Source of the DNA: Gammaproteobacteria bacterium
Lineage (GTDB): Bacteria > Pseudomonadota > Gammaproteobacteria > JBIOEC01
DNA: 32,000 bases
Reading direction: 5' to 3'
Assembly (NCBI GenBank): GCA_965279305.1
Contig: OZ257143.1
Coordinates: 120,001 to 152,000, forward strand
The translations under genes and the position numbers were made by a program. Of the stretch, positions 8,219 through 16,595 are shown piece by piece. How positions within the stretch are numbered: the stretch's first letter is position 1; each line of letters begins with the position of its first letter. Under the pieces are notes generated by a model, which had not been told where the DNA came from, made no database searches, and was given only the letters and a program-made list of their open reading frames with translations.

Positions 8219-8611
8219 ATGAACATTATTGAACAAGTAGAACAACAGCAATTACGTCACGATATCCCTGAATTTAGCACAGGCGATACTTTACTCGTAC
8301 AAGTAAAGGTAAAAGAAGGTAACCGTGAACGTTTACAAGCATTCGAAGGTATCGTGATTGCCAAGCGCAACCGCGGCCTTAACTCTGCATTTACTTTGCG
8401 TAAAATTTCGCACGGTGAAGGCGTAGAACGCGTATTCCAAACTCATAGCCCTGCTATTGCTTCTGTTAGTCTGAAGCGTCGTGGTGATGTGCGTAAAGCC
8501 AAATTGTATCACTTGCGTGATCTTAGCGGTAAAGCGGCACGTATTCGCGAAAAATTGGGTGGCAAAATCAGCACAGCTGCTGCTGAAAAAGCGACTCCTG
8601 AAGCTGAGTAA
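8219..8611 (+). CDS. rplS: 50S ribosomal protein L19
   Basis: [46 protein letters not shown] is a canonical L19 sequence. It is the last gene of the rpsP operon. Confidence 0.95.
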
Positions 8612-8618
8612 ATCCCTG

Positions 8619-8662
8619 AGAAGGAGATATTGTGAAACACTTCACGATTATCTCCTTTTTTC
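8619..8662 (+). terminator. rho-independent terminator of rplS, overlapping the 3' end of the convergent kinase gene
   Basis: AAGGAGATA (8621..8629) pairs with TATCTCCTT (8649..8657). An inner GTGAA-acac-TTCAC hairpin is present, followed by a T-run at 8656..8661. Confidence 0.6.
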
Positions 8663-9967
8663 ATCAACCGGTATTCTTACCGTAAACGTTGTACCTTTAC
8701 CTTCTACACTTTCTACTTGAATAGTTCCATCTAACTCTTCAATAAATTTCTTAACAATACTTAATCCCAAACCGGTTCCAGGATAAATACCTTCGTGCGA
8801 GGCGGTTAACCGAACAAATTTTTCAAAAATTAATTCTAGTTTATCCGCTGGCATTCCTATTCCTGTATCTGAAACTGCCATGTTCAAATATTTTTTATCT
8901 TTTTTCTCTTGTACAAGAGAAATATTAATAGTCACACCACCTTGGTTGGTAAACTTCAATGCATTACCTACCAAGTTTAATAAAATTCTTTCAATACGCA
9001 TAGGATCTGAGATAATAACAGATGGCACATCAGATGCTGTATGAACATGCAAATAAATATGTTTTTCATCCATCAGTGATGAATAAGACTCTTCAATGTG
9101 TTTTAATACACTCCTCACATCCACTTCTTCTTTTTTAATAGACAAACTGCCTGCTTCAATACTCACCGCATCTAAAATATTCGTAAACATTTGCAAAATA
9201 CGTTCGCCTCCGCGGTAAATCATCATCAAATGTTCTTTACGTGTTTTATCATCTTCCGTTTCAGATAATAACTCTGCCATTCCCATTACGTTCATTAAAG
9301 GATTTTTTAAATCATGGCTCATGTTTTGAATAAATTCTGATTTAGCCCAGCTCGCTTCTTCAGCTTTTTTCTTTTCAATCGCTAATAATTTAATCGTTTT
9401 CTTTTGCTCAGTAATATCAAATGCCGTTCCCAGCAAACCCACAATATCCCCTTTAGAATTTCTCAATGGAACTTTCGCCGATAAATAAGTACGCGCACCA
9501 TTTGCCGTATCAGGGGTTTCTTCAATAATAATTTCTTTTCCACTTCTCATCACTTGATTATTTACTTTATCAATAATTTTGGATTGTGCTTTCCAGGGTA
9601 ACTCAGCATTGGTTTTACCAATAATATCTTCACGTGCTGCTAAACCTGCCGCTTCTGCTTGCTCGTTATTACAACCTAAATACACATTATTGCGATCTAA
9701 CCAAAAAATATGGCCAGGGGCTAAAGAAATAATACTATCCATATAATTATGAGATTCAATCAAATAATCAACTATAGTAAATTTCTTTAAAGGATTTTGA
9801 CCGGTTATTTTTTTAAAAACAGAAGCTAGTTGTTTTAACTGTTTTTTATGATCATTTTCTTTTTTTTCTAGCTTTTCTTTTAAAAGGCGATATTTTTCTT
9901 GTAGTTTTTCTATCGTTTTTTTATGAGGCGAAGGGCTTTTTCTGGTTTTACTGATTTTTTTAGGCAT
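8648..9967 (-). CDS. cytoplasmic PAS-domain sensor histidine kinase
   Basis: It has a Lys-rich coiled-coil N-terminus, one PAS domain (PGHIFWLDRNNVYLGCN), an H-box EFIQNMSHDLKNPL, and N/G boxes (LVGNALKFT, DTGIGM, GTGLGLSIV). It has no TM segment. The ATG at 9967 is preceded by GGAGGA; the track start at 9979 is an alternative. Confidence 0.88.
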   Translation of the reverse strand: MPKKISKTRKSPSPHKKTIEKLQEKYRLLKEKLEKKENDHKKQLKQLASVFKKITGQNPLKKFTIVDYLIESHNYMDSIISLAPGHIFWLDRNNVYLGCNNEQAEAAGLAAREDIIGKTNAELPWKAQSKIIDKVNNQVMRSGKEIIIEETPDTANGARTYLSAKVPLRNSKGDIVGLLGTAFDITEQKKTIKLLAIEKKKAEEASWAKSEFIQNMSHDLKNPLMNVMGMAELLSETEDDKTRKEHLMMIYRGGERILQMFTNILDAVSIEAGSLSIKKEEVDVRSVLKHIEESYSSLMDEKHIYLHVHTASDVPSVIISDPMRIERILLNLVGNALKFTNQGGVTINISLVQEKKDKKYLNMAVSDTGIGMPADKLELIFEKFVRLTASHEGIYPGTGLGLSIVKKFIEELDGTIQVESVEGKGTTFTVRIPVDEKRR

Positions 9968-9996
9968 TGTTTCCTCCATGAAACGTCTGCGCTTAA

Positions 9997-10695
9997 TTAA
10001 GTGATCTTGACGACTAAAAAGCCTTGATCCGAAGAAATCATATCGCCATTTAAATATAACTCATTTAAATAAGGCGGAATTGAATGATACACAAAAAGAG
10101 AAGACTTTACCCCTAAAATATGAGGTACATCCTGAAACAAAGGAAACTCTCTTAAAAAATACTGTACCGCTAAATCGTAAGCTTTACCAGTAAAAGACGT
10201 ATCTCCTTCTTTATTATTAAGCACCCAAGAACAAGTAGAAAGGCAATTATTTCGAAATATAGGATCAGTGTCAAATCTTACCAAACATTCTTCATACAAA
10301 CGCTTGTAATGTGGATTCTCATATAACCCAGAAAGAGAAATAAACATTTTTGCTGCATCAAGATCACTAATCCCCACCTCGTTAAACGCTCTAAATACTT
10401 TATTTCTGAGATAACTATCTTGTCTGCGTGTTTTTTGCAGTGCCTTCTCTTCCGTATATCCCTTGGCCATTAACGTAAAAACCGAAATATTATCCGGAAC
10501 AAATATATGCATATGCTCAAAATTATCTAAAGCCCAACGGATTAATATCACCAAGTTTTCTATAGAAAAATAACTATTAAAAGGGCTAGCACCAATAAAA
10601 ACATGATGTTTGCCCGCATAGATCGAGGCTGATTTTTCACCAATGGGTAAAATTTCTAAACCATGGGGGTTTAAGCTCTGAATTAAAGTGTTCAA
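9997..10695 (-). CDS. tRNA-dependent cyclodipeptide synthase (CDPS), NYH subfamily
   Basis: It aligns with recalled AlbC. HHVFIGASPFNSYFS matches HALIGISAGNSYFS, giving Ser37 and Asn40. YFLREFPLF matches YVLAEAPLF, giving Tyr179 and Glu183. SSLFVYHSIPP matches SSVLCYHIDTP, giving Tyr203-His204. The start is TTG, with no ATG or GTG in the first 25 codons. Confidence 0.85.
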   Translation of the reverse strand: MNTLIQSLNPHGLEILPIGEKSASIYAGKHHVFIGASPFNSYFSIENLVILIRWALDNFEHMHIFVPDNISVFTLMAKGYTEEKALQKTRRQDSYLRNKVFRAFNEVGISDLDAAKMFISLSGLYENPHYKRLYEECLVRFDTDPIFRNNCLSTCSWVLNNKEGDTSFTGKAYDLAVQYFLREFPLFQDVPHILGVKSSLFVYHSIPPYLNELYLNGDMISSDQGFLVVKIT

Positions 10696-10789
10696 AAAAT
10701 ATCCAATATGTATAAAAGTATGTATATTAGTGAAGTATCAGAGTAAGGTCAATAAAGGTAGCTTGCTGAGATATTTAAAATTTCAAGCC

Positions 10790-10798
10790 TATTTACCA
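10790..10798 (-). promoter_or_regulatory. possible extended -10 (TGgTAAATA) for the CDPS-kinase operon
   Basis: The minus strand reads ATTTATGGTAAATA. It shares ATTTATGGTAAA with the dsbC upstream region and lies about 90 nt upstream of the CDPS start. Confidence 0.25.
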
Positions 10799-10993
10799 TA
10801 AATAACAACTCACAAATATATGTAGACAATTGATTTTAAATATAATTTTTCTATCCACTGGCCAAATTGAAAGAAACTTACCCTCTTATATCAGCAAGAT
10901 ATCTTACATTTATTTCAGCTATAGACTACAGCAACCTAACTACCATTTAAATATAATATCTGATAACATATTTTTTTGAGAAAGAGGATTGCC

Positions 10994-11395
10994 ATGGCTA
11001 ATGCCCCCATTTCAGCAAAAGTTCTTTTAGTAGAAGACGACCCGGTTAACCAGATTGTTATTAAGGGTTTACTTAACCTTATAGGATGCGACGTCACTGT
11101 TGCTAGCGGCGGTAAAGAAGCGCTCGCACTACTCACCGCACCCAATGCACCTTTTGAAGCTGTTCTTATGGATATTGGATTACCTGATATTAATGGAATG
11201 GAAGTAACACGACAAATGCGTGCGTCTGATAGCAAATTGCGCAATGTCCCTATTATTGCGTTAACAGGACATGTAACGAGTAAAGATCAACAAGCCTGTT
11301 TAGATAGTGGTATGAATCGTTTTGTTAGCAAACCCACCACTAAAGAAATATTACAAAAAGAACTTAACGCTTTATTTTCTGATGACACGATGTAA
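10994..11395 (+). CDS. single-domain (receiver-only, CheY-like) response regulator
   Basis: VLLVEDDPVN, VLMDIGLPDING (the phospho-acceptor Asp), IIALTGH and FVSKP are present, with no output domain. ATG 10994 is preceded by AAGAGGA; the track TTG at 10976 is less likely. Confidence 0.88.
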   Translation: MANAPISAKVLLVEDDPVNQIVIKGLLNLIGCDVTVASGGKEALALLTAPNAPFEAVLMDIGLPDINGMEVTRQMRASDSKLRNVPIIALTGHVTSKDQQACLDSGMNRFVSKPTTKEILQKELNALFSDDTM

Positions 11396-11717
11396 ATATT
11401 GATTCATCTCTATTTTATTATAAAAACTAAAAAAATTCTCAAATGTGAATTTTTAAAATAAATTTAGTGATTAAATAACTACTTGTTATCTATGCATTAG
11501 GCAAAATATTGCTATCTGACTTAAAAAATGATAATGTTGATGTGGGATATTGTATTTTTTGTTTGTGCGTTTTTTGCTATTATCGTTGGTAGCATGTAAA
11601 AAATAACTCACGTATAATGCCAATTACTTATCTACCAAAAGATAGGATGAGGCATGTATAAAGAAGTTATCACAACAGTTTAGGTAATAACTCAAGCGAA
11701 TGACTAAAGAATTTTAA

Positions 11718-14012
11718 ATGATGATAAATGAAGCTTTCAAAAACATAAAAGAGAGAGAAAAGCAGGCTGCTGCTGCAGAACAACTTCGAGCATCCGCTGC
11801 AGCTACTTCTGCTCATACTGCGCCTTTTGAGGATACCTCTGGAGAGCAATCTCCTCCCTCTCTTACTGCTGCTTTTTCTGACTCGAGTAGTGACAGAAGT
11901 AGTAGAGACCCTTCTCCTCCTATCAGGGCCATTATTCCAGTGGAAGTATTAGATGAAACGGGTCAAAAAAACATTCCTGATGATGATCTATTTCGTAAAA
12001 CGCCTGTTATTGTTGCGAGCATGGCTGGCAGAGGGATAGATGCAACCTCTACGCGTTCTCCACAAAAAACCTATTTTAACTCACCATTGTTTCAAGCTTA
12101 TATCACTTATTTTAAAGAACGAAACTTATCTCCCAAAGTGGGGATCGCTGACCATTTACAAATCTGGAATATACTACGAGCTTATTTTCCTGGTTTTCAC
12201 CTTAATCATGCGTTGTCCTTAGCGAGAGATTTATCTGTTCAAATATCTAAAGCAAAAATAAATGTTTTAAACAATGAAATGACCAGACGAAGAATTATAC
12301 TTTCGTCAGAAACAGATTTACCTACAGGTTTTGATGAACTAAGACAAGACATGCATGAGTTAGATATCAAATTGCATGATGATCCTAGACTCGAAACTCA
12401 AAGAAATCCTTTACCAGACATGGATTGGGAAGCTTTTATTAATGCTTTTGCTCCTCACCTTTTAACCAATACCATATTTAATGCTGATAATGTGGTACTT
12501 AATTCAGCTGCAAGCACTGATCTTTTAGCAAAAGTGCTTGAGTACTTGCGCCCCTATTTTCCCAGTGAAGAAAATTTATACACTTTTTTAGCTATTTTTG
12601 ATCCCCAAGGTGCAGAACTGATTAATGACAGAAGGGGGCAGGACTGGACTAGTTTTAGTCAAGTAGTCACTCCCATTATCCAACGTTTAACAAATTGGCA
12701 ATTACTTTACACAGCTTTTGCATTACCATTAGCAACACAAATTGTTCGTCTAGATTCTTATCTCTACCGACGAAGTTTTAAAACCACTATAATTGATTCT
12801 GCATTTGGCCATCATGGCAGCTGGGAAAGGGCTTATTTATCAGATGATTTTGTTACCGCGCAAGAAGTGGTTCGCACTGGATTGAAAAATGGCAGCGCCC
12901 GTTTTGATAGATGTGTAATCAATGGATCCCTAGATTTTCAAACCAGCAAAGTTTATAAACAAAATATACACCAAGCTCCAACAGAGCATAAACGTGCTTA
13001 TGAAATAGCCATAACAGATTTCACCCGAATTTATCAAATAACCGAAACAGCCATGTCAGTTTTAATGGCAACACTCATCGATGGCCCTAAAAGATTTTAT
13101 TATCCTAAACCATGGACATCTGGCAATCAAGAATTTTCATTATACGCTTATCATGCGACTGCCCCTATGTCGCCACCCGTACAATTTGGTGTGATTAGAG
13201 AAGTAAAAGTGTCAGAAGTAAAACTAGGTAGAACAAACAAACAATCAAAAAGACTCTCTGGCGAGATTAAACCACTTTTACCTGAGCATAGAGCCTCATC
13301 CACTCCCATACCGGTTATTGCTAGGATTGTTCAACAGGATGATAGCATGCGACCTTCTTCTTTCCCGGGGATGCCTGTGTTTTCTGAGTCACCTCCAAGC
13401 ATGACTAGTGGTTTTGGTATGGCTCCTCCAGTGGTACAGGGCGCACCAGATCCCGGTGCACCTCAAAAATCTCAAGCACAACAACAAGCTAATGCCACTC
13501 ATCAGTCAGTTTATGGATTCCAGAGCGTCCCTGGAGTCGTAGAAGTTCACCATTACCATCATACAACTGTATTTGTGGCAAGGCCTCCAATGCCGGGCGA
13601 TGCAAAAGACTACTATGCTGCCTATCCTACTATGATGATGCAAGGATATACACACCAAATGATGCCGCCTGGAGTTAATCCACAGATGGGTTATCACGCC
13701 ATTCCACAGCCAGCGGGTTATCCGCCACAAATCCCTTATGCATCTATGCCACAACCGGTCTATCCGCCACAAATCCCTTATGCATCTATGCCACAACCAG
13801 CATATCCGCCACAGATGCCTTATGCATCTATGCAACCGGGATATCCGCCACAGATGCCTTATGCGCAAGCAGTATACGCCGTGCCTACCATACCCAAACC
13901 TCCTACACCGGACGCATGGTCAAATGCTAATGAAGATGAAGATGAAATGCAAACTAATGATGTTCCACCGCCGCCACCTGATCTCCCAAGAACTGCTGAT
14001 CAACCAAGCTAA
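11718..14012 (+). CDS. large orphan protein with Ser-rich N-terminus and Pro/Gln/Tyr/Met-rich repetitive C-terminus (candidate secreted effector)
   Basis: It is a 764-aa ORF after a 320-bp AT-rich gap. I recognise no family for the ~450-aa core. The C-terminal ~230 aa are low-complexity, with tandem YPPQ(I/M)PYASMPQP units and an acidic NEDEDEM block near the end. Confidence 0.75.
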   Translation: MMINEAFKNIKEREKQAAAAEQLRASAAATSAHTAPFEDTSGEQSPPSLTAAFSDSSSDRSSRDPSPPIRAIIPVEVLDETGQKNIPDDDLFRKTPVIVASMAGRGIDATSTRSPQKTYFNSPLFQAYITYFKERNLSPKVGIADHLQIWNILRAYFPGFHLNHALSLARDLSVQISKAKINVLNNEMTRRRIILSSETDLPTGFDELRQDMHELDIKLHDDPRLETQRNPLPDMDWEAFINAFAPHLLTNTIFNADNVVLNSAASTDLLAKVLEYLRPYFPSEENLYTFLAIFDPQGAELINDRRGQDWTSFSQVVTPIIQRLTNWQLLYTAFALPLATQIVRLDSYLYRRSFKTTIIDSAFGHHGSWERAYLSDDFVTAQEVVRTGLKNGSARFDRCVINGSLDFQTSKVYKQNIHQAPTEHKRAYEIAITDFTRIYQITETAMSVLMATLIDGPKRFYYPKPWTSGNQEFSLYAYHATAPMSPPVQFGVIREVKVSEVKLGRTNKQSKRLSGEIKPLLPEHRASSTPIPVIARIVQQDDSMRPSSFPGMPVFSESPPSMTSGFGMAPPVVQGAPDPGAPQKSQAQQQANATHQSVYGFQSVPGVVEVHHYHHTTVFVARPPMPGDAKDYYAAYPTMMMQGYTHQMMPPGVNPQMGYHAIPQPAGYPPQIPYASMPQPVYPPQIPYASMPQPAYPPQMPYASMQPGYPPQMPYAQAVYAVPTIPKPPTPDAWSNANEDEDEMQTNDVPPPPPDLPRTADQPS
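13719..13865 (+). repeat. in-frame tandem repeat, ~3.5 units of 42/39 bp
   Basis: The units start at 13719, 13761, 13803 and 13842. They encode YPPQIPYASMPQPV, YPPQIPYASMPQPA, YPPQMPYASMQPG and YPPQMPYA. Confidence 0.85.
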
Positions 14013-15651
14013 TTTTTGACTGAGAAGCAGGAAGTTCAAACGGTAGATAACAAGAAAAAATAGAACCAATACCCAGTTGGCTTCGAACTTGAATACTTCC
14101 ACCTAATTCTTTGATAAATTGTTTAACAATATTGAGTCCTAAACCTGTTCCTCTATATTGTCCTTCATACGATCCACTAACACGAGTAAATTTACCAAAA
14201 ATAAATTCTAATTTATCTTCAGGGATCCCAATACCCGTATCAATCACTTGAATTTCAAGATCCACACCGTGCTCTTCAGTACAAGAAATCACCATTACTT
14301 TAATAGTAATTTTACCTTGATGAGTAAATTTAATTGCATTGCCTACTAAATTAAGAATAACACGCTCTAAGCGTTTGGCATCGCCTTCTAAAATAGTAGG
14401 CAAACTATTATCTATAACAACTTCTATTCCTAAACATTGTTGTTTCAGTTGAGGTGTCACCATATCAACAACAGATCCTATAATCTGCCTTATATCAAAG
14501 GAAATTTTTTCTATCTCCATTCTTCCCGATTCTACACTAGCAAATTCTACAATTTCATTAATAAATCCAAATAAGCGGCCTGCTGATTTATTAACAGCTT
14601 CAATAAAATCTCGTTTCAGCGGATCGGTTTCTAAATGTAATAACATATCGGAGCCGCCAATTATACCATTCATAGGGGTGCGAATATCATGGCTCATATT
14701 TTGAATAAATTCTGTTTTAGCGCGATTAGCTGCTTCAGCTCGTTCCTTTTCAATTTTTAATGATTGCTCTGCACGAATTCTGGCGGTAATATCAATAGAA
14801 ATACCTAACAAACCAGAAACCTCATCGTCATTATTAAATAAAGGCACTTTATAGGTTAAATAAATCGCAGGAACACCATCAGCATTAATCCCTTGCTCTT
14901 CTTCAAAACAAATCATTCTTCTGGATTTCATTACTTGTTGATCATCTTGAAAAACACGATCGGCCATCTCTTTAGGTAATAAATCATAAATATTCTTACC
15001 AACAAATTCACTTCTAGAATTAGCTTTAAACAGTTTTAAAATTTCTTTATTACAACCTAAGTAAATACCATTTTTATCACACCAATAAACATGGCCCGGC
15101 ATTAAATCAATAATATTTTCTAAATATTTTCGAATATTGATAACATAATATAAAAGTGATTCTTTAGTATTTAATGGCTGCCCTGTGATCTCGCTATATA
15201 AACGAGCCAGTTGATTTGTATTTTCAACGAGTTGTTTTTGATATTCATTATTTTCAGGTGAAAACAATTCTGAATTAATATTTTTAATATAAATAATAAC
15301 GCCAATGATTTCATTTTTATCATTTTTAAAAGGAGCACGGTGCAAGCTGCAGAATAATAAATTTCCGTCTGCATGCTTCCAGATTTCTTGACAGTGACTA
15401 GTAGTGCCAGAAGCAATAACAGCACGATCTTCTTTTTCTACTTCTTGTTGTTGATCATCTTGAAAAAAAAACGTATTGGGTTTCCCTACAATATCGTTTT
15501 TATGAAAAAAACCAAACGAATGGAGGAATGCATTATTACATCCTAAAAAAACGCCATGCTTATCTTTCCAAACAACAGGGGTGGGGATGGCTTCTAATAA
15601 ATCAGAAACGGAAGGAAATATCATATTTTTATTATCGGTAATAATAGTCAT
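13954..15651 (-). CDS. cytoplasmic sensor histidine kinase with multiple PAS domains, paralog of 8648..9967
   Basis: PAS signatures include VVWKDKHGVFLGCN and PGHVYWCDKNGIYLGCN. The H-box is EFIQNMSHDIRTPM, with LVGNAIKFT, DTGIGI and GTGLGLNIV. It has no TM segment. The 3' end overlaps the convergent 11718..14012 ORF by 59 bp. Confidence 0.88.
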   Translation of the reverse strand: MTIITDNKNMIFPSVSDLLEAIPTPVVWKDKHGVFLGCNNAFLHSFGFFHKNDIVGKPNTFFFQDDQQQEVEKEDRAVIASGTTSHCQEIWKHADGNLLFCSLHRAPFKNDKNEIIGVIIYIKNINSELFSPENNEYQKQLVENTNQLARLYSEITGQPLNTKESLLYYVINIRKYLENIIDLMPGHVYWCDKNGIYLGCNKEILKLFKANSRSEFVGKNIYDLLPKEMADRVFQDDQQVMKSRRMICFEEEQGINADGVPAIYLTYKVPLFNNDDEVSGLLGISIDITARIRAEQSLKIEKERAEAANRAKTEFIQNMSHDIRTPMNGIIGGSDMLLHLETDPLKRDFIEAVNKSAGRLFGFINEIVEFASVESGRMEIEKISFDIRQIIGSVVDMVTPQLKQQCLGIEVVIDNSLPTILEGDAKRLERVILNLVGNAIKFTHQGKITIKVMVISCTEEHGVDLEIQVIDTGIGIPEDKLEFIFGKFTRVSGSYEGQYRGTGLGLNIVKQFIKELGGSIQVRSQLGIGSIFSCYLPFELPASQSKISLVDQQFLGDQVAAVEHH

Positions 15652-15795
15652 AAATAAAAGAAGGACATTGTCCGATAAAAGTAAGGTGGTAACCTTATCA
15701 TTTTAACCGAAAAATAGAATAAAAACACTATAATCTTATACTTAAGTTAAGAAGCTCAGATGTTTTATTTATCAATAAAAAGAAATAAAAATTTA

Positions 15796-15842: not shown

Positions 15843-16595
15843 ATGAAACATCTATTTTATACAGTTACCCTACTAAGCTTATACGTAGGCTCGGCTATTG
15901 CCGCACCTACCGCTGAGACGCTAGAAAAAAACTGGAGCGAAGTATTATCAGGTAGCAAAATTAATCATATTGAAGCCTCCCCGATTGATGGCTTATGGGA
16001 AGTCGATGCAGGCGCTCATGTTTTTTATTCTAACGAGAAAGGCGATAAATTAATTTTTGGAGATATCTTAAGCCTTGATCCTAAAGAAGGTTATGTAAAT
16101 CTTACTGAAGAACGCCGTATGGGTACCCGAATGGAGGCACTTAAAGCATTAAATCAAAAAGACATGATTAGCTATAATGCAAAAAAGTCTAAGCATGATA
16201 TTTATGTATTTACCGATCCCGATTGCGGATACTGCCGTAAATTTCATAATGAACGTGCTGATTTACTAAAAGCGGGGATCAGCATACATTACTTAGCAAT
16301 GCCTCGTACACCACCAGGCAGCCCTTCTTACAATAAATCTGTTGCCATTTGGTGCGCGTCTGACAGACAAAAAGCTTTAACTGATTCTAAAAAAGATGCA
16401 TTTAAAGACGAAAACAAAACCTGTACTGCTGGCGAAAAGATTGTGGCTACCGATGTTAAACTTGCTAGAGAATTTGGTGCTCAAGGCACACCCACTATTG
16501 TTTTAGATACAGGTGAAGTAGTACCTGGTTATGTTCCTGCTGAAAAAATTATTGAATACTATAACGAAAATGCAAAAAAGACCTCTACCCAATAA
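15843..16595 (+). CDS. dsbC: periplasmic thiol:disulfide interchange protein DsbC/DsbG family
   Basis: It has a signal peptide (...LYVGSAIA|AP), an N-terminal dimerisation-type domain, and the thioredoxin active site FTDPDCGYCRKFH. Confidence 0.85.
   Translation: MKHLFYTVTLLSLYVGSAIAAPTAETLEKNWSEVLSGSKINHIEASPIDGLWEVDAGAHVFYSNEKGDKLIFGDILSLDPKEGYVNLTEERRMGTRMEALKALNQKDMISYNAKKSKHDIYVFTDPDCGYCRKFHNERADLLKAGISIHYLAMPRTPPGSPSYNKSVAIWCASDRQKALTDSKKDAFKDENKTCTAGEKIVATDVKLAREFGAQGTPTIVLDTGEVVPGYVPAEKIIEYYNENAKKTSTQ

Follow-up and report, generated by a model that had tools for sequence, protein, structure and literature searches.

Whether cyclodipeptides act as genuine bacterial signals has, to our knowledge, been debated for over twenty years with no dedicated pair of synthase and receptor at hand. 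Such pairs are familiar from other chemistries: in the Cqs and Lqs systems, an autoinducer synthase and a sensor kinase are clustered with a second kinase and a response regulator, and the synthase is a PLP-dependent, aminotransferase-like enzyme producing alpha-hydroxyketones. Another described receptor is VqmA, which as far as we know is restricted to Vibrio and their phages, and synthesis of its ligand, DPO, depends on threonine dehydrogenase. DPO is the pyrazinone autoinducer 3,5-dimethylpyrazin-2-ol; VqmA K101 hydrogen-bonds its ring carbonyl, and the K101R substitution abolishes binding (bioRxiv 10.1101/2019.12.19.881847). A further paper reportedly implicates adenylate-forming enzymes in DPO synthesis (PMC12930378). 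The fusions listed for cyclodipeptide synthases (CDPSs) involve only methyltransferase, P450 and ABC-transporter domains (PMC5816076).

Here we describe a locus within the window, that is, the whole 32,000-nucleotide stretch analysed, in which a CDPS gene adjoins a cytoplasmic kinase with a VqmA-like PAS domain. The same pairing, sometimes fused, recurs across many bacteria, and thus looks like a dedicated make-and-sense signalling system. A preliminary description of this DNA knew of no described CDPS-two-component pairing, which is nearly right: we found no analysis or experiment, but brief mentions exist. Skinnider et al. 2018 (PMC5767969) give one sentence on PAS domains near CDPS genes, suggesting quorum sensing, and 'Hiskin+rec' stands uncommented among the gene and protein abbreviations of Aravind et al. 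2010 (PMC2922099).

Gene content of the module

The features, each verified at the coordinates below, are as follows.

8648-15651: whole module, containing the CDPS, HK1, receiver-only protein and HK2, with a 764-aa protein between
8648..9967, minus strand: HK1, PAS-HisKA-HATPase sensor histidine kinase, 439 aa from ATG 9967 (Pfam)
8663..9346, minus: HK1 transmitter, HisKA + HATPase_c (Pfam)
9316-9314, minus: codon of HK1 phospho-acceptor His222 (from the H-box EFIQNMSHD)
9380..9769, minus: HK1 VqmA-like PAS, residues 71-200 in 443-aa numbering (PDB sequence search, AF2, Foldseek)
9475-9473, minus: codon of HK1 Lys169, aligned with VqmA K101
9968..9996, minus: CDPS-HK1 junction, 29 nt with a GGAGGA ribosome-binding site (read from the sequence, CDPS stop to ATG 9967)
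9997..10695, minus: CDPS, NYH subfamily, 232 aa, TTG start (Pfam PF16715, TIGR04539)
10587-10585, minus: codon of the CDPS nucleophile Ser37 (alignment to AlbC)
10696..10993, no strand: AT-rich divergent intergenic region, 298 bp, between the CDPS and receiver genes
10994..11395, plus: receiver-only response regulator, 133 aa (PF00072, 8.5e-25, 87.5 bits)
11718..14012, plus: 764-aa protein with a Pro/Gln/Met-rich repeat tail, between receiver and HK2
13954..15651, minus: HK2, paralogous cytoplasmic kinase, PAS-PAS-HisKA-HATPase, 565 aa (Pfam)
About 14761-15156, minus: HK2 PAS-b, ligand lysine kept as K268
About 15274-15600, minus: HK2 PAS-a, Arg105 at the lysine position

Judged by its sequence, the window CDPS is an intact, NYH-type enzyme. 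It matches PF16715 at E 5.5e-52 (177 bits, cut-off 27) and TIGR04539 at E 9e-60 (202 bits, curated cut-off 45), and its closest solved relative is AlbC (3oqv, E 4e-22). Aligned to AlbC, it keeps S37, N40, Y179, E183, Y203 and H204, equivalent to AlbC S37, N40, Y178, E182, Y202 and H203. The pocket motifs, FGFPLLFF (P1) and TWVNSPP (P2), match none of the characterised specificity groups in Table 2 of PMC5816076.

The CDPS-HK1 junction is operon-like, and the two genes look like a single transcript: the 29 nt hold no terminator-like site, and their RNA folding is no better than that of shuffles (z 0.09). At other loci the corresponding junctions range mostly from -76 to +150 nt, some with overlapping genes. 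A strong sigma-70-like match lies within the CDPS gene (TTGACA-17-AATAAT, 11/12, 10274-10246, minus strand) and could uncouple HK1 expression, in a region where promoter-like matches are not above expectation (23 found versus 28.4 expected from shuffles). For the CDPS itself, the promoter scan gave a weak site at 10752-10724 (minus strand, 9/12), and the 298-bp intergenic region contains no Rfam family.

By its predicted domains (PAS_4 3e-11, HisKA 1e-16, HATPase_c 1e-29) and H-box, HK1 is a HisKA-type two-component sensor kinase. Its open reading frame begins at ATG 9979 (8648-9979, 443 aa); GGAGGAAACA precedes ATG 9967, which is the likelier start; the gene caller chose the equivalent one in the closest relative, L001 (93% identical, 439 aa). 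HK2 (HisKA 1e-14, HATPase_c 2e-29) shares with HK1 the PAS motif, the PAS subtype and the H-box EFIQNMSHD, in which its histidine is H321. Neither kinase has a TM segment, the maximum Kyte-Doolittle 19-mer being 1.09 in both. The receiver retains both its acidic EDD pocket and, within MDIGLPD, the phospho-acceptor Asp; its 133 residues contain no output domain and leave no room for one. Its best NCBIfam matches are receiver domains of the hybrid kinases PRK15347, TorS and ArcB, and comparison with the receivers fused to CDPS-linked hybrid kinases gives E 1e-22 to 1e-24. The window contains no HPt gene. These results bear out the preliminary description, which had read a CDPS frame ending 29 nt before a GGAGGA-preceded ATG with no hairpin between, a TM-less PAS-HisKA-HATPase kinase, a receiver transcribed divergently across 298 bp and a second kinase with the same PAS signature and H-box; the profile-HMM search that it proposed matched the CDPS, PAS, HisKA and REC domains alike.

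The island lies between rplS and dsbC and has a G+C content of 0.31-0.36, compared with 0.40-0.46 in the ribosomal-protein and ruvC flanks; thus, it was probably acquired horizontally. Domain annotation of the neighbours, including Pfam, revealed neither a tailoring enzyme nor an exporter within the island. The CDPS has as its neighbours the kinase, the receiver, the 764-aa protein, rplS and dsbC, and no cyclodipeptide oxidase, P450, methyltransferase or 2-OG oxygenase adjoins it there, so that the adjacent tailoring enzyme of a classical cluster is absent. The 764-aa protein has no match in Pfam or NCBIfam and is a doubtful member of the module: its only ortholog is in L001 (78% identity, with neighbouring genes at 92-99%), and it is missing from every other CDPS-kinase locus.

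The PAS subtype and its linkage to CDPSs

The top PDB match of the PAS domain is VqmA, at E 9e-6 for HK1 PAS alone and 2e-13 for the PAS profile. Searched by Foldseek with an AF2 model of HK1 PAS (pLDDT 97), the best six matches are all VqmA (rmsd 1.4-1.8 A), at 25-26% identity, compared with about 15% for generic PAS domains. The K101-equivalent lysine is invariant in PAS alignments A2 and A4 and near-universal among the tabulated PAS domains. Within the ligand-contact trio K101/F67/F99, this lysine is K169 in HK1 and K268 in HK2 PAS-b, with Arg in HK2 PAS-a, and the Phe pair is not kept. As HK1 has Ile and Ser in place of the DPO-stacking aromatics F67 and F99, its pocket is not the same as that of VqmA and the ligand is not readable from it. 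Replacement by Ile/Leu and Ser/Thr might fit the non-aromatic ring of a diketopiperazine.

We rejected HK1 as a VqmA ortholog, since its output is a kinase and none of the window PAS proteins has a fused LuxR-type HTH; the relationship is that of a homologous PAS domain. HTH-fused relatives are separate proteins elsewhere, and in L173 an XYP CDPS has a protein of VqmA architecture (PAS + LuxR-type HTH) 670 nt away. The PAS domain is not specific for CDPS products, because the family at large is very big (E<=1e-30 takes in 21,897 representative proteins), a CDPS is absent from about half of the closest PAS-selected loci, and some of these have other neighbours instead (a 420-480 aa family, an A-T-TE NRPS-like enzyme or FeeM).

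The preliminary description proposed asking whether kinase adjacency recurs among CDPS homologs, and it does so strongly from both directions of search. In the forward search, 80 genome loci found by CDPS profile were searched with the window kinases. In one CDPS clade, defined by an unbootstrapped NJ tree, every locus with enough flank has a kinase beside the CDPS or fused to it, always with the same PAS subtype (n=15, counted on stop-to-stop ORFs and including the window itself and its metagenome relatives: the window, L001, L002, L006, L009, L013, L014, L016, L017, L020, L047, L048, L061, L063 and L089). These loci span Gamma-, Beta- and Alphaproteobacteria as well as Elusimicrobiota; their sources are an uncultured gammaproteobacterium, a Coxiellaceae MAG, Ca. 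Finniella, a 'Janthinobacterium' MAG, alphaproteobacterial MAGs and Ca. Endomicrobiellum. No adjacent or fused kinase was found at about 60 actinobacterial, sphingomonad, Marinicaulis or Gemmatimonadota CDPS loci, and control CDPS loci totalling about 1.2 Mb contain neither an adjacent kinase nor a copy of the linked PAS subtype. The PAS subtype is identical in all CDPS-linked kinases; Pfam finds HisKA only in some of them, and some match the GHKL-type HATPase_c_5 instead. What travels with the CDPS is the PAS subtype.

The reverse search, its counts likewise based on stop-to-stop ORFs, covered 80 metagenome loci picked solely by PAS similarity. A CDPS lies within 600 nt of 42 of the 91 PAS genes (immediately upstream on the same strand in 30), is present for 40 of the 74 with at least 1 kb of upstream sequence, and stands directly beside the PAS gene in 32 of 71 non-redundant loci. 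These CDPSs are mostly XYP-type and missed by Pfam; their profile matches Cglo-CDPS (5ocd, E 1e-100), Fdum-CDPS (5mlq, 3e-59) and Rgry-CDPS (5mlp, 2e-23). Thus, two CDPS subfamilies are tied to one PAS subtype. Pfam-confirmed fusions take the forms CDPS-PAS-HATPase (L016, L020), PAS-HisKA-HATPase-CDPS (L063, L089) and XYP CDPS-PAS-kinase (L114, L115), and the two genes are convergent in L002/L017 and L133/L138. The genetic linkage that characterises quorum-sensing pairs was found between synthase and candidate receptor, as adjacency and as fusion, in both search directions. Nearly all kinase-linked CDPSs keep the full catalytic set, the sole exception being L020, where Y202 is Cys. The NYH-signature residue His203 is missing in L016, L020, L047, L048 and L061 and is Asn in L014.

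Explanations for the pairing

We consider it fairly probable that the CDPS product is sensed by the adjacent VqmA-like PAS kinases, making the island a self-contained make-and-sense signalling module. The CDPS would take two aminoacyl-tRNAs and release an untailored cyclodipeptide (2,5-diketopiperazine). This small, membrane-permeant ring would enter the VqmA-like PAS pocket of cytoplasmic HK1, itself presumably translated from the CDPS mRNA, and would probably also bind PAS-b of the paralog HK2. Binding may change, in one direction or the other, the kinase or phosphatase activity of HK1 and HK2 toward the neighbouring receiver-only protein, the presumed phosphotransfer partner of both and the putative detached equivalent of the REC that, with HPt, is fused to homologous kinases in other genomes. 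The phosphoryl group would then move from the receiver to a further partner and so to a putative output. The ring may act between cells, in quorum or confinement sensing, or solely within the producing cell.

An unlikely but substantial alternative is that the kinases are pathway regulators that sense another cue (a host metabolite, redox or other signal) and switch cyclodipeptide production, the product acting outward on a eukaryotic host or competitors. Regulators within biosynthetic clusters are a common arrangement, a CDPS does not adjoin half of the closest PAS relatives, and many carriers live inside cells or as endosymbionts (Coxiellaceae, Ca. Finniella, Ca. Endomicrobiellum and the Ca. 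Glomeribacter-like locus L133), bacteria of the type for which Aravind et al. 2010 (PMC2922099) proposed host-directed roles of CDPS products. However, the receiver lacks a DNA-binding output, and covalent fusion of enzyme and kinase in three architectures is hard to square with transcriptional control. The constant companion of the CDPS is the PAS subtype, with HisKA Pfam-detected in only some linked kinases, and the nearest characterised PAS relative binds a ring of nearly diketopiperazine size and chemistry.

We regard as improbable a role of the CDPS as kinase input through protein-protein contact, its aminoacyl-tRNA occupancy or acyl-enzyme state reporting amino-acid or tRNA-charging status, or conversely allosteric control of the enzyme by the kinase. 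Fusions in both orders do place the enzyme in the usual position of a sensor or output domain, tight and sometimes overlapping junctions suggest stoichiometric co-expression, and CDPSs bind aminoacyl-tRNAs directly (PMC7566563). Yet the window CDPS and nearly all linked ones keep the full catalytic set, which points to selection for product formation; the lysine of the PAS pocket is kept, as in ligand-binding VqmA, and the convergent gene pairs are not co-translated. Chance adjacency through island assembly, with no functional link, would accord with the low G+C and the rplS-dsbC position but is refuted by the comparative data and retains almost no probability: the pairing is seen in 15 loci selected by CDPS and in 32 of 71 selected by PAS, in different phyla and two CDPS subfamilies and with fusions, and the control loci have neither an adjacent kinase nor this PAS subtype.

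Our preferred reading of a CDPS product sensed by VqmA-like PAS kinases makes this locus and its relatives a candidate synthase-receptor pair for the cyclodipeptide-signal question. We lean, by a little, towards a widespread class of dedicated cyclodipeptide signalling, in which CDPSs are paired with, and sometimes fused to, VqmA-like PAS receptors whose output is a kinase, a hybrid phosphorelay or a LuxR-type HTH, and which is enriched in intracellular and endosymbiotic bacteria. If true, this would supply the missing cognate receptors for diketopiperazine signals, take the VqmA family of receptors outside Vibrio and their phages, and explain many 'orphan' proteobacterial CDPSs without tailoring genes, the crystallised Cglo-type enzyme included. 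A large CDPS group, among it Pfam-unrecognised XYP enzymes and at least one enzyme type known from crystallography, would be reassigned from 'secondary metabolite enzymes awaiting tailoring partners' to 'signal synthases'. As many carriers live inside eukaryotic cells, a diffusible ring peptide could serve in confinement or host-compartment sensing. The locus offers a one-gene synthase and a soluble PAS kinase with a pocket that can be modelled on VqmA, and the natural fusions are material for binding and structural work.

Comparison with known systems

The DPO-VqmA system of Vibrio cholerae and phage VP882 shares with this module a cytoplasmic PAS domain as receptor or candidate receptor. VqmA is the nearest solved relative of HK1 PAS by sequence and predicted fold, the carbonyl-binding lysine is kept, and the ligand, as proposed here, would likewise be a small six-membered N-heterocycle from two amino-acid-derived units. 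Additionally, PAS + LuxR-HTH proteins of this PAS subtype exist, one beside a CDPS. The systems differ in output, a fused HTH in VqmA and a predicted histidine kinase phosphorelay here, and in synthesis, as a tRNA-dependent CDPS is encoded next to the candidate receptor. In the pocket, F67 and F99 of VqmA contrast with Ile/Leu and Ser/Thr, and identity is 25-26%.

CqsA/CqsS of Vibrio and LqsA-LqsR-LqsS/LqsT of Legionella have the same layout, with a synthase gene by a sensor kinase, a paralogous second kinase and a response regulator without classical DNA-binding output. Their synthases are PLP-dependent alpha-hydroxyketone enzymes whereas ours is a CDPS, their kinases are membrane proteins sensing via TM helices whereas the window kinases are cytoplasmic, and there is no homology between the parts. 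PMC5289986 is a review of the Lqs system.

Classical CDPS clusters (albonoursin AlbABCD, pulcherriminic acid YvmC-CypX, mycocyclosin Rv2275-CYP121) share the core enzyme family and catalytic residues with this locus. They add an oxidase, P450 or methyltransferase, often with transporters, where the window has signal-transduction partners instead. Diketopiperazine effects on the LuxR-type receptors LuxR01/02 of Shewanella baltica likewise cast cyclodipeptides as bacterial signals (reviewed in PMC13220807). Those receptors are orphan AHL-type LuxR proteins without a linked synthase, whereas here a dedicated synthase is encoded alongside its candidate receptor or fused to it.

Gene content and setting of the island

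Five proteins are encoded in an island of about 7 kb between rplS and dsbC, as listed here with window positions and strand.

Genes of the island and its flanks
8219-8611, +, rplS, left flank of the island
8648-9979/9967, -, HK1, a PAS_4-HisKA-HATPase_c kinase (Pfam)
9997-10695, -, cyclodipeptide synthase (CDPS; Pfam CDPS, E 5.5e-52; NCBIfam TIGR04539, 202 bits)
10994-11395, +, receiver-only protein of 133 aa, Response_reg alone (Pfam)
11718-14012, +, 764-aa protein without a family match
13954-15651, -, HK2, a PAS-PAS-HisKA-HATPase_c paralogue of HK1 (Pfam)
15843-16595, +, dsbC, right flank of the island

The preliminary description had proposed that the CDPS and HK1 genes form one transcript, that the cyclodipeptide is perhaps the ligand of the kinase, and that the receiver is its phosphotransfer target. 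Pfam finds the CDPS, PAS, HisKA and Response_reg domains, with NCBIfam in agreement, and neither kinase contains a hydrophobic segment. GGAGGA precedes the HK1 ATG, which lies 29 nt from the CDPS stop; a site scan found no terminator-like site at this junction, and its RNA folds no better than shuffles, in line with the earlier report of no hairpin. Thus the observation is confirmed in every detail, namely a CDPS, PAS kinases without transmembrane segments, a 29-nt gap and a receiver-only gene. A sigma-70-like near-consensus match (TTGACA, 17 nt, AATAAT) lies inside the CDPS gene at 10274-10246 (-), about 280 nt upstream of HK1, and could allow HK1 to be expressed independently of the CDPS. 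Promoter-like matches in the AT-rich part of the island show no excess over shuffles, and an Rfam search of the island gave no match.

The G+C content of the island (8600-15700) is 0.31-0.36, against 0.40-0.46 in the flanking ribosomal-protein and ruvC regions, the exception being a Pro-rich stretch at 13-14 kb. This and the insertion between rplS and dsbC are consistent with horizontal acquisition. L001, the closest relative of the window, carries the same insertion and has the same synteny, with identities of 97-99% for housekeeping neighbours, 98.5% for the receiver, 94% for each of HK1 and HK2, about 92-93% for the CDPS and 78% for the 764-aa protein. Synthase and kinases may therefore evolve somewhat faster than their surroundings, which is anecdotal with two genomes only. 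The window comes from an uncultured gammaproteobacterium that lacks close relatives among sequenced genomes; its TrmD is 99% identical to that of the L001 contig and at most 80% to all else, and the only named matches are MAGs labelled 'Gammaproteobacteria bacterium', at about 60-66%. Intracellular or endosymbiotic lineages account for many of the other carriers of the module.

The window CDPS matches AlbC (E 4e-22) and retains the nucleophilic Ser, Y178, E182, Y202 and the N/Y/H signature (AlbC numbering), and thus is, judged by these residues, an intact enzyme of the NYH subfamily. An exact-sequence look-up found no record of it, and close relatives are few, with four clusters among 5.8 billion proteins and a best match of 47% identity among GTDB species representatives, which do not include the window genome. 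We name no product, because the P1/P2 pocket motifs match no published specificity group; the JGI label 'cyclo(Tyr-Tyr) synthase' on the database protein P0002 was set aside as generic annotation. In one sub-branch of the kinase-linked CDPSs, His203 of the NYH signature is Lys in L016, L020 and the Ca. Endomicrobiellum loci L047, L048 and L061, and Asn in L014; L020 also has Cys at the cyclisation residue Tyr202. Neither the island nor the rest of the window encodes a tailoring enzyme, a transporter or a further two-component protein.

The receiver has an acidic pocket and a phospho-acceptor Asp. Among NCBIfam models it fits best those for the receivers of hybrid kinases, for example TorS and ArcB, and it resembles the fused receivers of CDPS-linked hybrid kinases (E 1e-22 to 1e-24). 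In L017 and L136, too, the kinase is followed by a receiver gene of its own. On these grounds the receiver looks like a detached middle element of a phosphorelay, for which no HPt protein or final regulator is encoded within the window. The 764-aa protein carries a Pro/Gln/Met-rich C-terminal tail with PQIPYASMPQP three times, and its gene and that of HK2 share 59 nt at their 3' ends. The protein, which may be secreted or effector-like, was set aside as a module member since, apart from the window, only the nearest relative has it.

Linkage of cyclodipeptide synthases to one PAS subtype

Kinase adjacency recurs among CDPS homologues and, among loci chosen by similarity to the window CDPS, is confined to one clade and its sister branch. 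Beyond L001, L009 encodes a 53%-identical CDPS followed 24 nt downstream by a PAS_4-HisKA-HATPase kinase, L006 a 53%-identical CDPS convergent with a PAS-PAS-HisKA-HATPase-REC-HPt hybrid kinase, and L002 a 57%-identical CDPS convergent with a degraded hybrid kinase and a receiver. The L002 kinase (10884-11619, -) is seemingly internally deleted, comprising a 96-aa PAS ORF and then an HATPase tail with a receiver cut short, and the module may be undergoing decay in this locus. When GTDB was scanned with a CDPS profile, each species being represented by a single genome, another 80 CDPS loci came up; their stop-to-stop ORFs were searched with the window proteins. A kinase adjoins the CDPS in Ca. 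Finniella (L013), a 'Janthinobacterium' MAG (L014), a Coxiellaceae MAG that also has a receiver gene (L017) and three Ca. Endomicrobiellum species (L047, L048 and L061). CDPS and kinase are in frame in four loci and are true fusions by Pfam, with the order CDPS-PAS_4-HATPase_c in L016 and L020 and PAS_4-HisKA-HATPase_c-CDPS in L063 and L089. In a neighbour-joining tree of 84 CDPS domains the kinase-linked enzymes form one clade, with L063 and L089 on its sister branch. None of the remaining ~60 CDPS loci (mostly Actinobacteria, with sphingomonads, Marinicaulis/Kordiimonas and Gemmatimonadota) has an adjacent kinase, and a kinase-like ORF occurs within 10 kb in just five.

An iterative search seeded with the HK1 PAS region and run over 92 loci recovered a single PAS subtype, present once or twice in each CDPS-linked kinase and nowhere else in these loci. 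Its motif is P-G-x-[IV]-[YF]-W-[KL]-D-x2-G-x-Y-L-G-C-N ... G-K-T-D-x-x-L-x-W-K ... K-x-P-L ... G-[IV]-x-G-x-[SA]-x-D-I-T. The transmitter modules of the linked kinases do not appear uniform: HisKA is recognised by Pfam in the window, L006, L017, L063, L089 and L133 and not in L013, L016, L020 and L048, the last three of which also match the GHKL-type HATPase_c_5. Some linked kinases are of the hybrid type, with added REC and HPt domains. The fusions L016 (9941-12181) and L020 (9938-12091) have an extra C-terminal region of ~120-140 aa past the HATPase domain.

The linkage also holds when the PAS domain is the starting point. A protein search with the PAS profile returned only proteins of at most 231 aa, so that kinase architectures were not visible, and was replaced by a scan of metagenome contigs with the PAS alignment alone, which selected 80 loci with no reference to CDPS. 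On these loci an HMM trained on NYH enzymes gave one strong match; its four weak matches lay beside or within ~200 nt of the PAS gene, and these weakly matching ORFs carry the motifs ISVGQ, YL[IK]EEC and [IV]YP. A jackhmmer search from one weak match converged on the CDPS family, and such an ORF lies beside the PAS gene in 36 loci. Pfam matched only one of the CDPS-like ORFs beside PAS kinases, that of L133, and below threshold (1.3e-4). A profile of 21 ORFs missed by Pfam matched the crystallised enzymes of the XYP subfamily in the PDB (Cglo-CDPS, E 1e-100; Fdum-CDPS, 3e-59; Rgry-CDPS, 2e-23), and this search, together with the jackhmmer convergence, settles their family membership. The L133 CDPS, convergent with a PAS-PAS-HisKA-HATPase-REC-HPt kinase, is virtually the enzyme of Ca. 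Glomeribacter, a producer of cFF and cFL (PMC7566563).

Altogether, a CDPS lies within 600 nt of 42 of the 91 PAS genes in the PAS-selected loci; in 30 of these it is upstream on the same strand, with gaps mostly of -76 to +150 nt, and two are fused. The count is 40 of 74 when only PAS genes preceded by 1 kb or more of sequence are taken, and 32 of 71 loci after near-identical contigs were collapsed. Several contigs carry tandem modules, such as L102 (CDPS-kinase-CDPS-kinase) and L103, in which three CDPSs surround a single kinase. The XYP set and the NYH clade alignment do not match significantly in hhalign (probability 0.8%, E 0.067), yet both subfamilies are linked to one PAS subtype, which is hard to explain other than by function.

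The PAS domain, VqmA and alternative partners

Against all PDB sequences, the PAS profile matched three entries of Vibrio cholerae VqmA best (E 2e-13), followed by the BvgS PAS (3e-6) and the phage VP882 VqmA (1e-5); the HK1 PAS as a single sequence also ranked VqmA first (9e-6). An AlphaFold2 model of HK1 residues 71-200 (pLDDT 97) has VqmA chains as its top six Foldseek matches, at 1.4-1.8 Å over ~116 residues and 25-26% identity, with generic PAS domains next at ~15% identity. VqmA is the cytoplasmic receptor of DPO (3,5-dimethylpyrazin-2-ol), which is stacked between F67 and F99 with its 2' carbonyl hydrogen-bonded by K101, and K101R and F67A abolish binding (bioRxiv 10.1101/2019.12.19.881847). 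K101 corresponds to HK1 K169 in the HMMER alignment; this lysine is invariant in the PAS alignments and near-universal among the tabulated domains, and D85 corresponds to a near-invariant Glu. The aromatic stackers are replaced, F67 by Ile/Leu and F99 by Ser/Thr. Similar to DPO in size, the 2,5-diketopiperazine ring is six-membered, non-aromatic and bears two carbonyls, and a kept lysine with lost aromatic stacking might be what such a ligand would call for. The first PAS of HK2 has Arg at the lysine position and so may not bind a ligand.

Across the PAS domains of L093-L172 and the window kinases, two flavours co-vary at the VqmA K23/D71 positions, W-K-D...D and W-[LMVQ]-D...N. In kinases with two PAS domains the first is usually of the K/D and the second of the L/N flavour, and HK1 and the Coxiellaceae L017 kinase have L/N only. 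At the H97/F99 positions NYH-linked domains are mostly M/T and XYP-linked ones F/Y/S, and HK1 groups with the XYP-linked 'L...N' flavour in the same tabulation; as this trend is weak, we did not use pocket residues as evidence on CDPS type.

The ligand of this PAS domain cannot be assumed from its fold. The wider family comprises 21,897 representative proteins at E<=1e-30, and in many of these the domain is repeated in tandem numerous times; about half of the closest PAS-selected loci are without a CDPS. Directly upstream and on the same strand as CDPS-less VqmA-like PAS kinases, about ten loci encode a family of 420-480 aa (L099, 8499-9944; L111, 8433-9839; L147, 8548-9936; L106, 3747-5018; L160, 1025-2326; also L104, L109, L128/129, L161 and L169). 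The family has no Pfam or PDB sequence match and stays apart from the CDPSs in jackhmmer; it could represent an alternative type of signal synthase that has escaped recognition. The subtype also occurs with a LuxR-type HTH, the architecture of VqmA, as in L173, where 670 nt separate such a protein from an XYP CDPS, which in turn is transcribed divergently from a PAS-PAS gene. Additionally, PAS-LuxR-HTH relatives on the contigs of proteins P0098 and P0094 adjoin an A-T-TE NRPS-like enzyme with a PPTase, or a FeeM-type N-acyl amino acid synthase; near that A-T-TE enzyme there are also PAS kinases and a receiver-only gene. These neighbours suggest that the receptor family pairs with several synthase types. 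The PAS domain is thus better described as a receptor module partnered with various small-molecule synthases, with CDPSs its commonest partner among the closest members, which fits a logic of synthase and receptor.

Prior work and likeness to known systems

Full-text literature searches found no study of a CDPS-kinase system. One sentence of Skinnider et al. 2018 lists PAS among the commonest non-biosynthetic domains near CDPS genes, and the authors suggest quorum sensing 'akin to the dipeptide signaling system in Vibrio' (PMC5767969). In Aravind et al. 2010, 'Hiskin+rec' appears in the list of gene and protein abbreviations, all CDPSs are described as stand-alone and host-directed roles are proposed for intracellular bacteria (PMC2922099), and Gondry et al. 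2018 list CDPS fusions only with methyltransferase, P450 and ABC-transporter domains (PMC5816076). What appears to be new is the linkage at the level of a clade and in both search directions, the fusion of CDPSs with kinases, the participation of XYP enzymes and a PAS domain homologous to that of VqmA.

As far as sequence analysis reaches, the interpretation offered in the preliminary description is supported. A functional coupling of some kind between CDPS and PAS kinase is very probable. We lean, with distinctly less confidence, towards the cyclodipeptide being the ligand of the PAS domain and the signal passing to the neighbouring receiver. Inexpensive experiments are available for this module, which can be likened to systems that combine a signal synthase with a sensor kinase, here with a receptor domain of the VqmA type.
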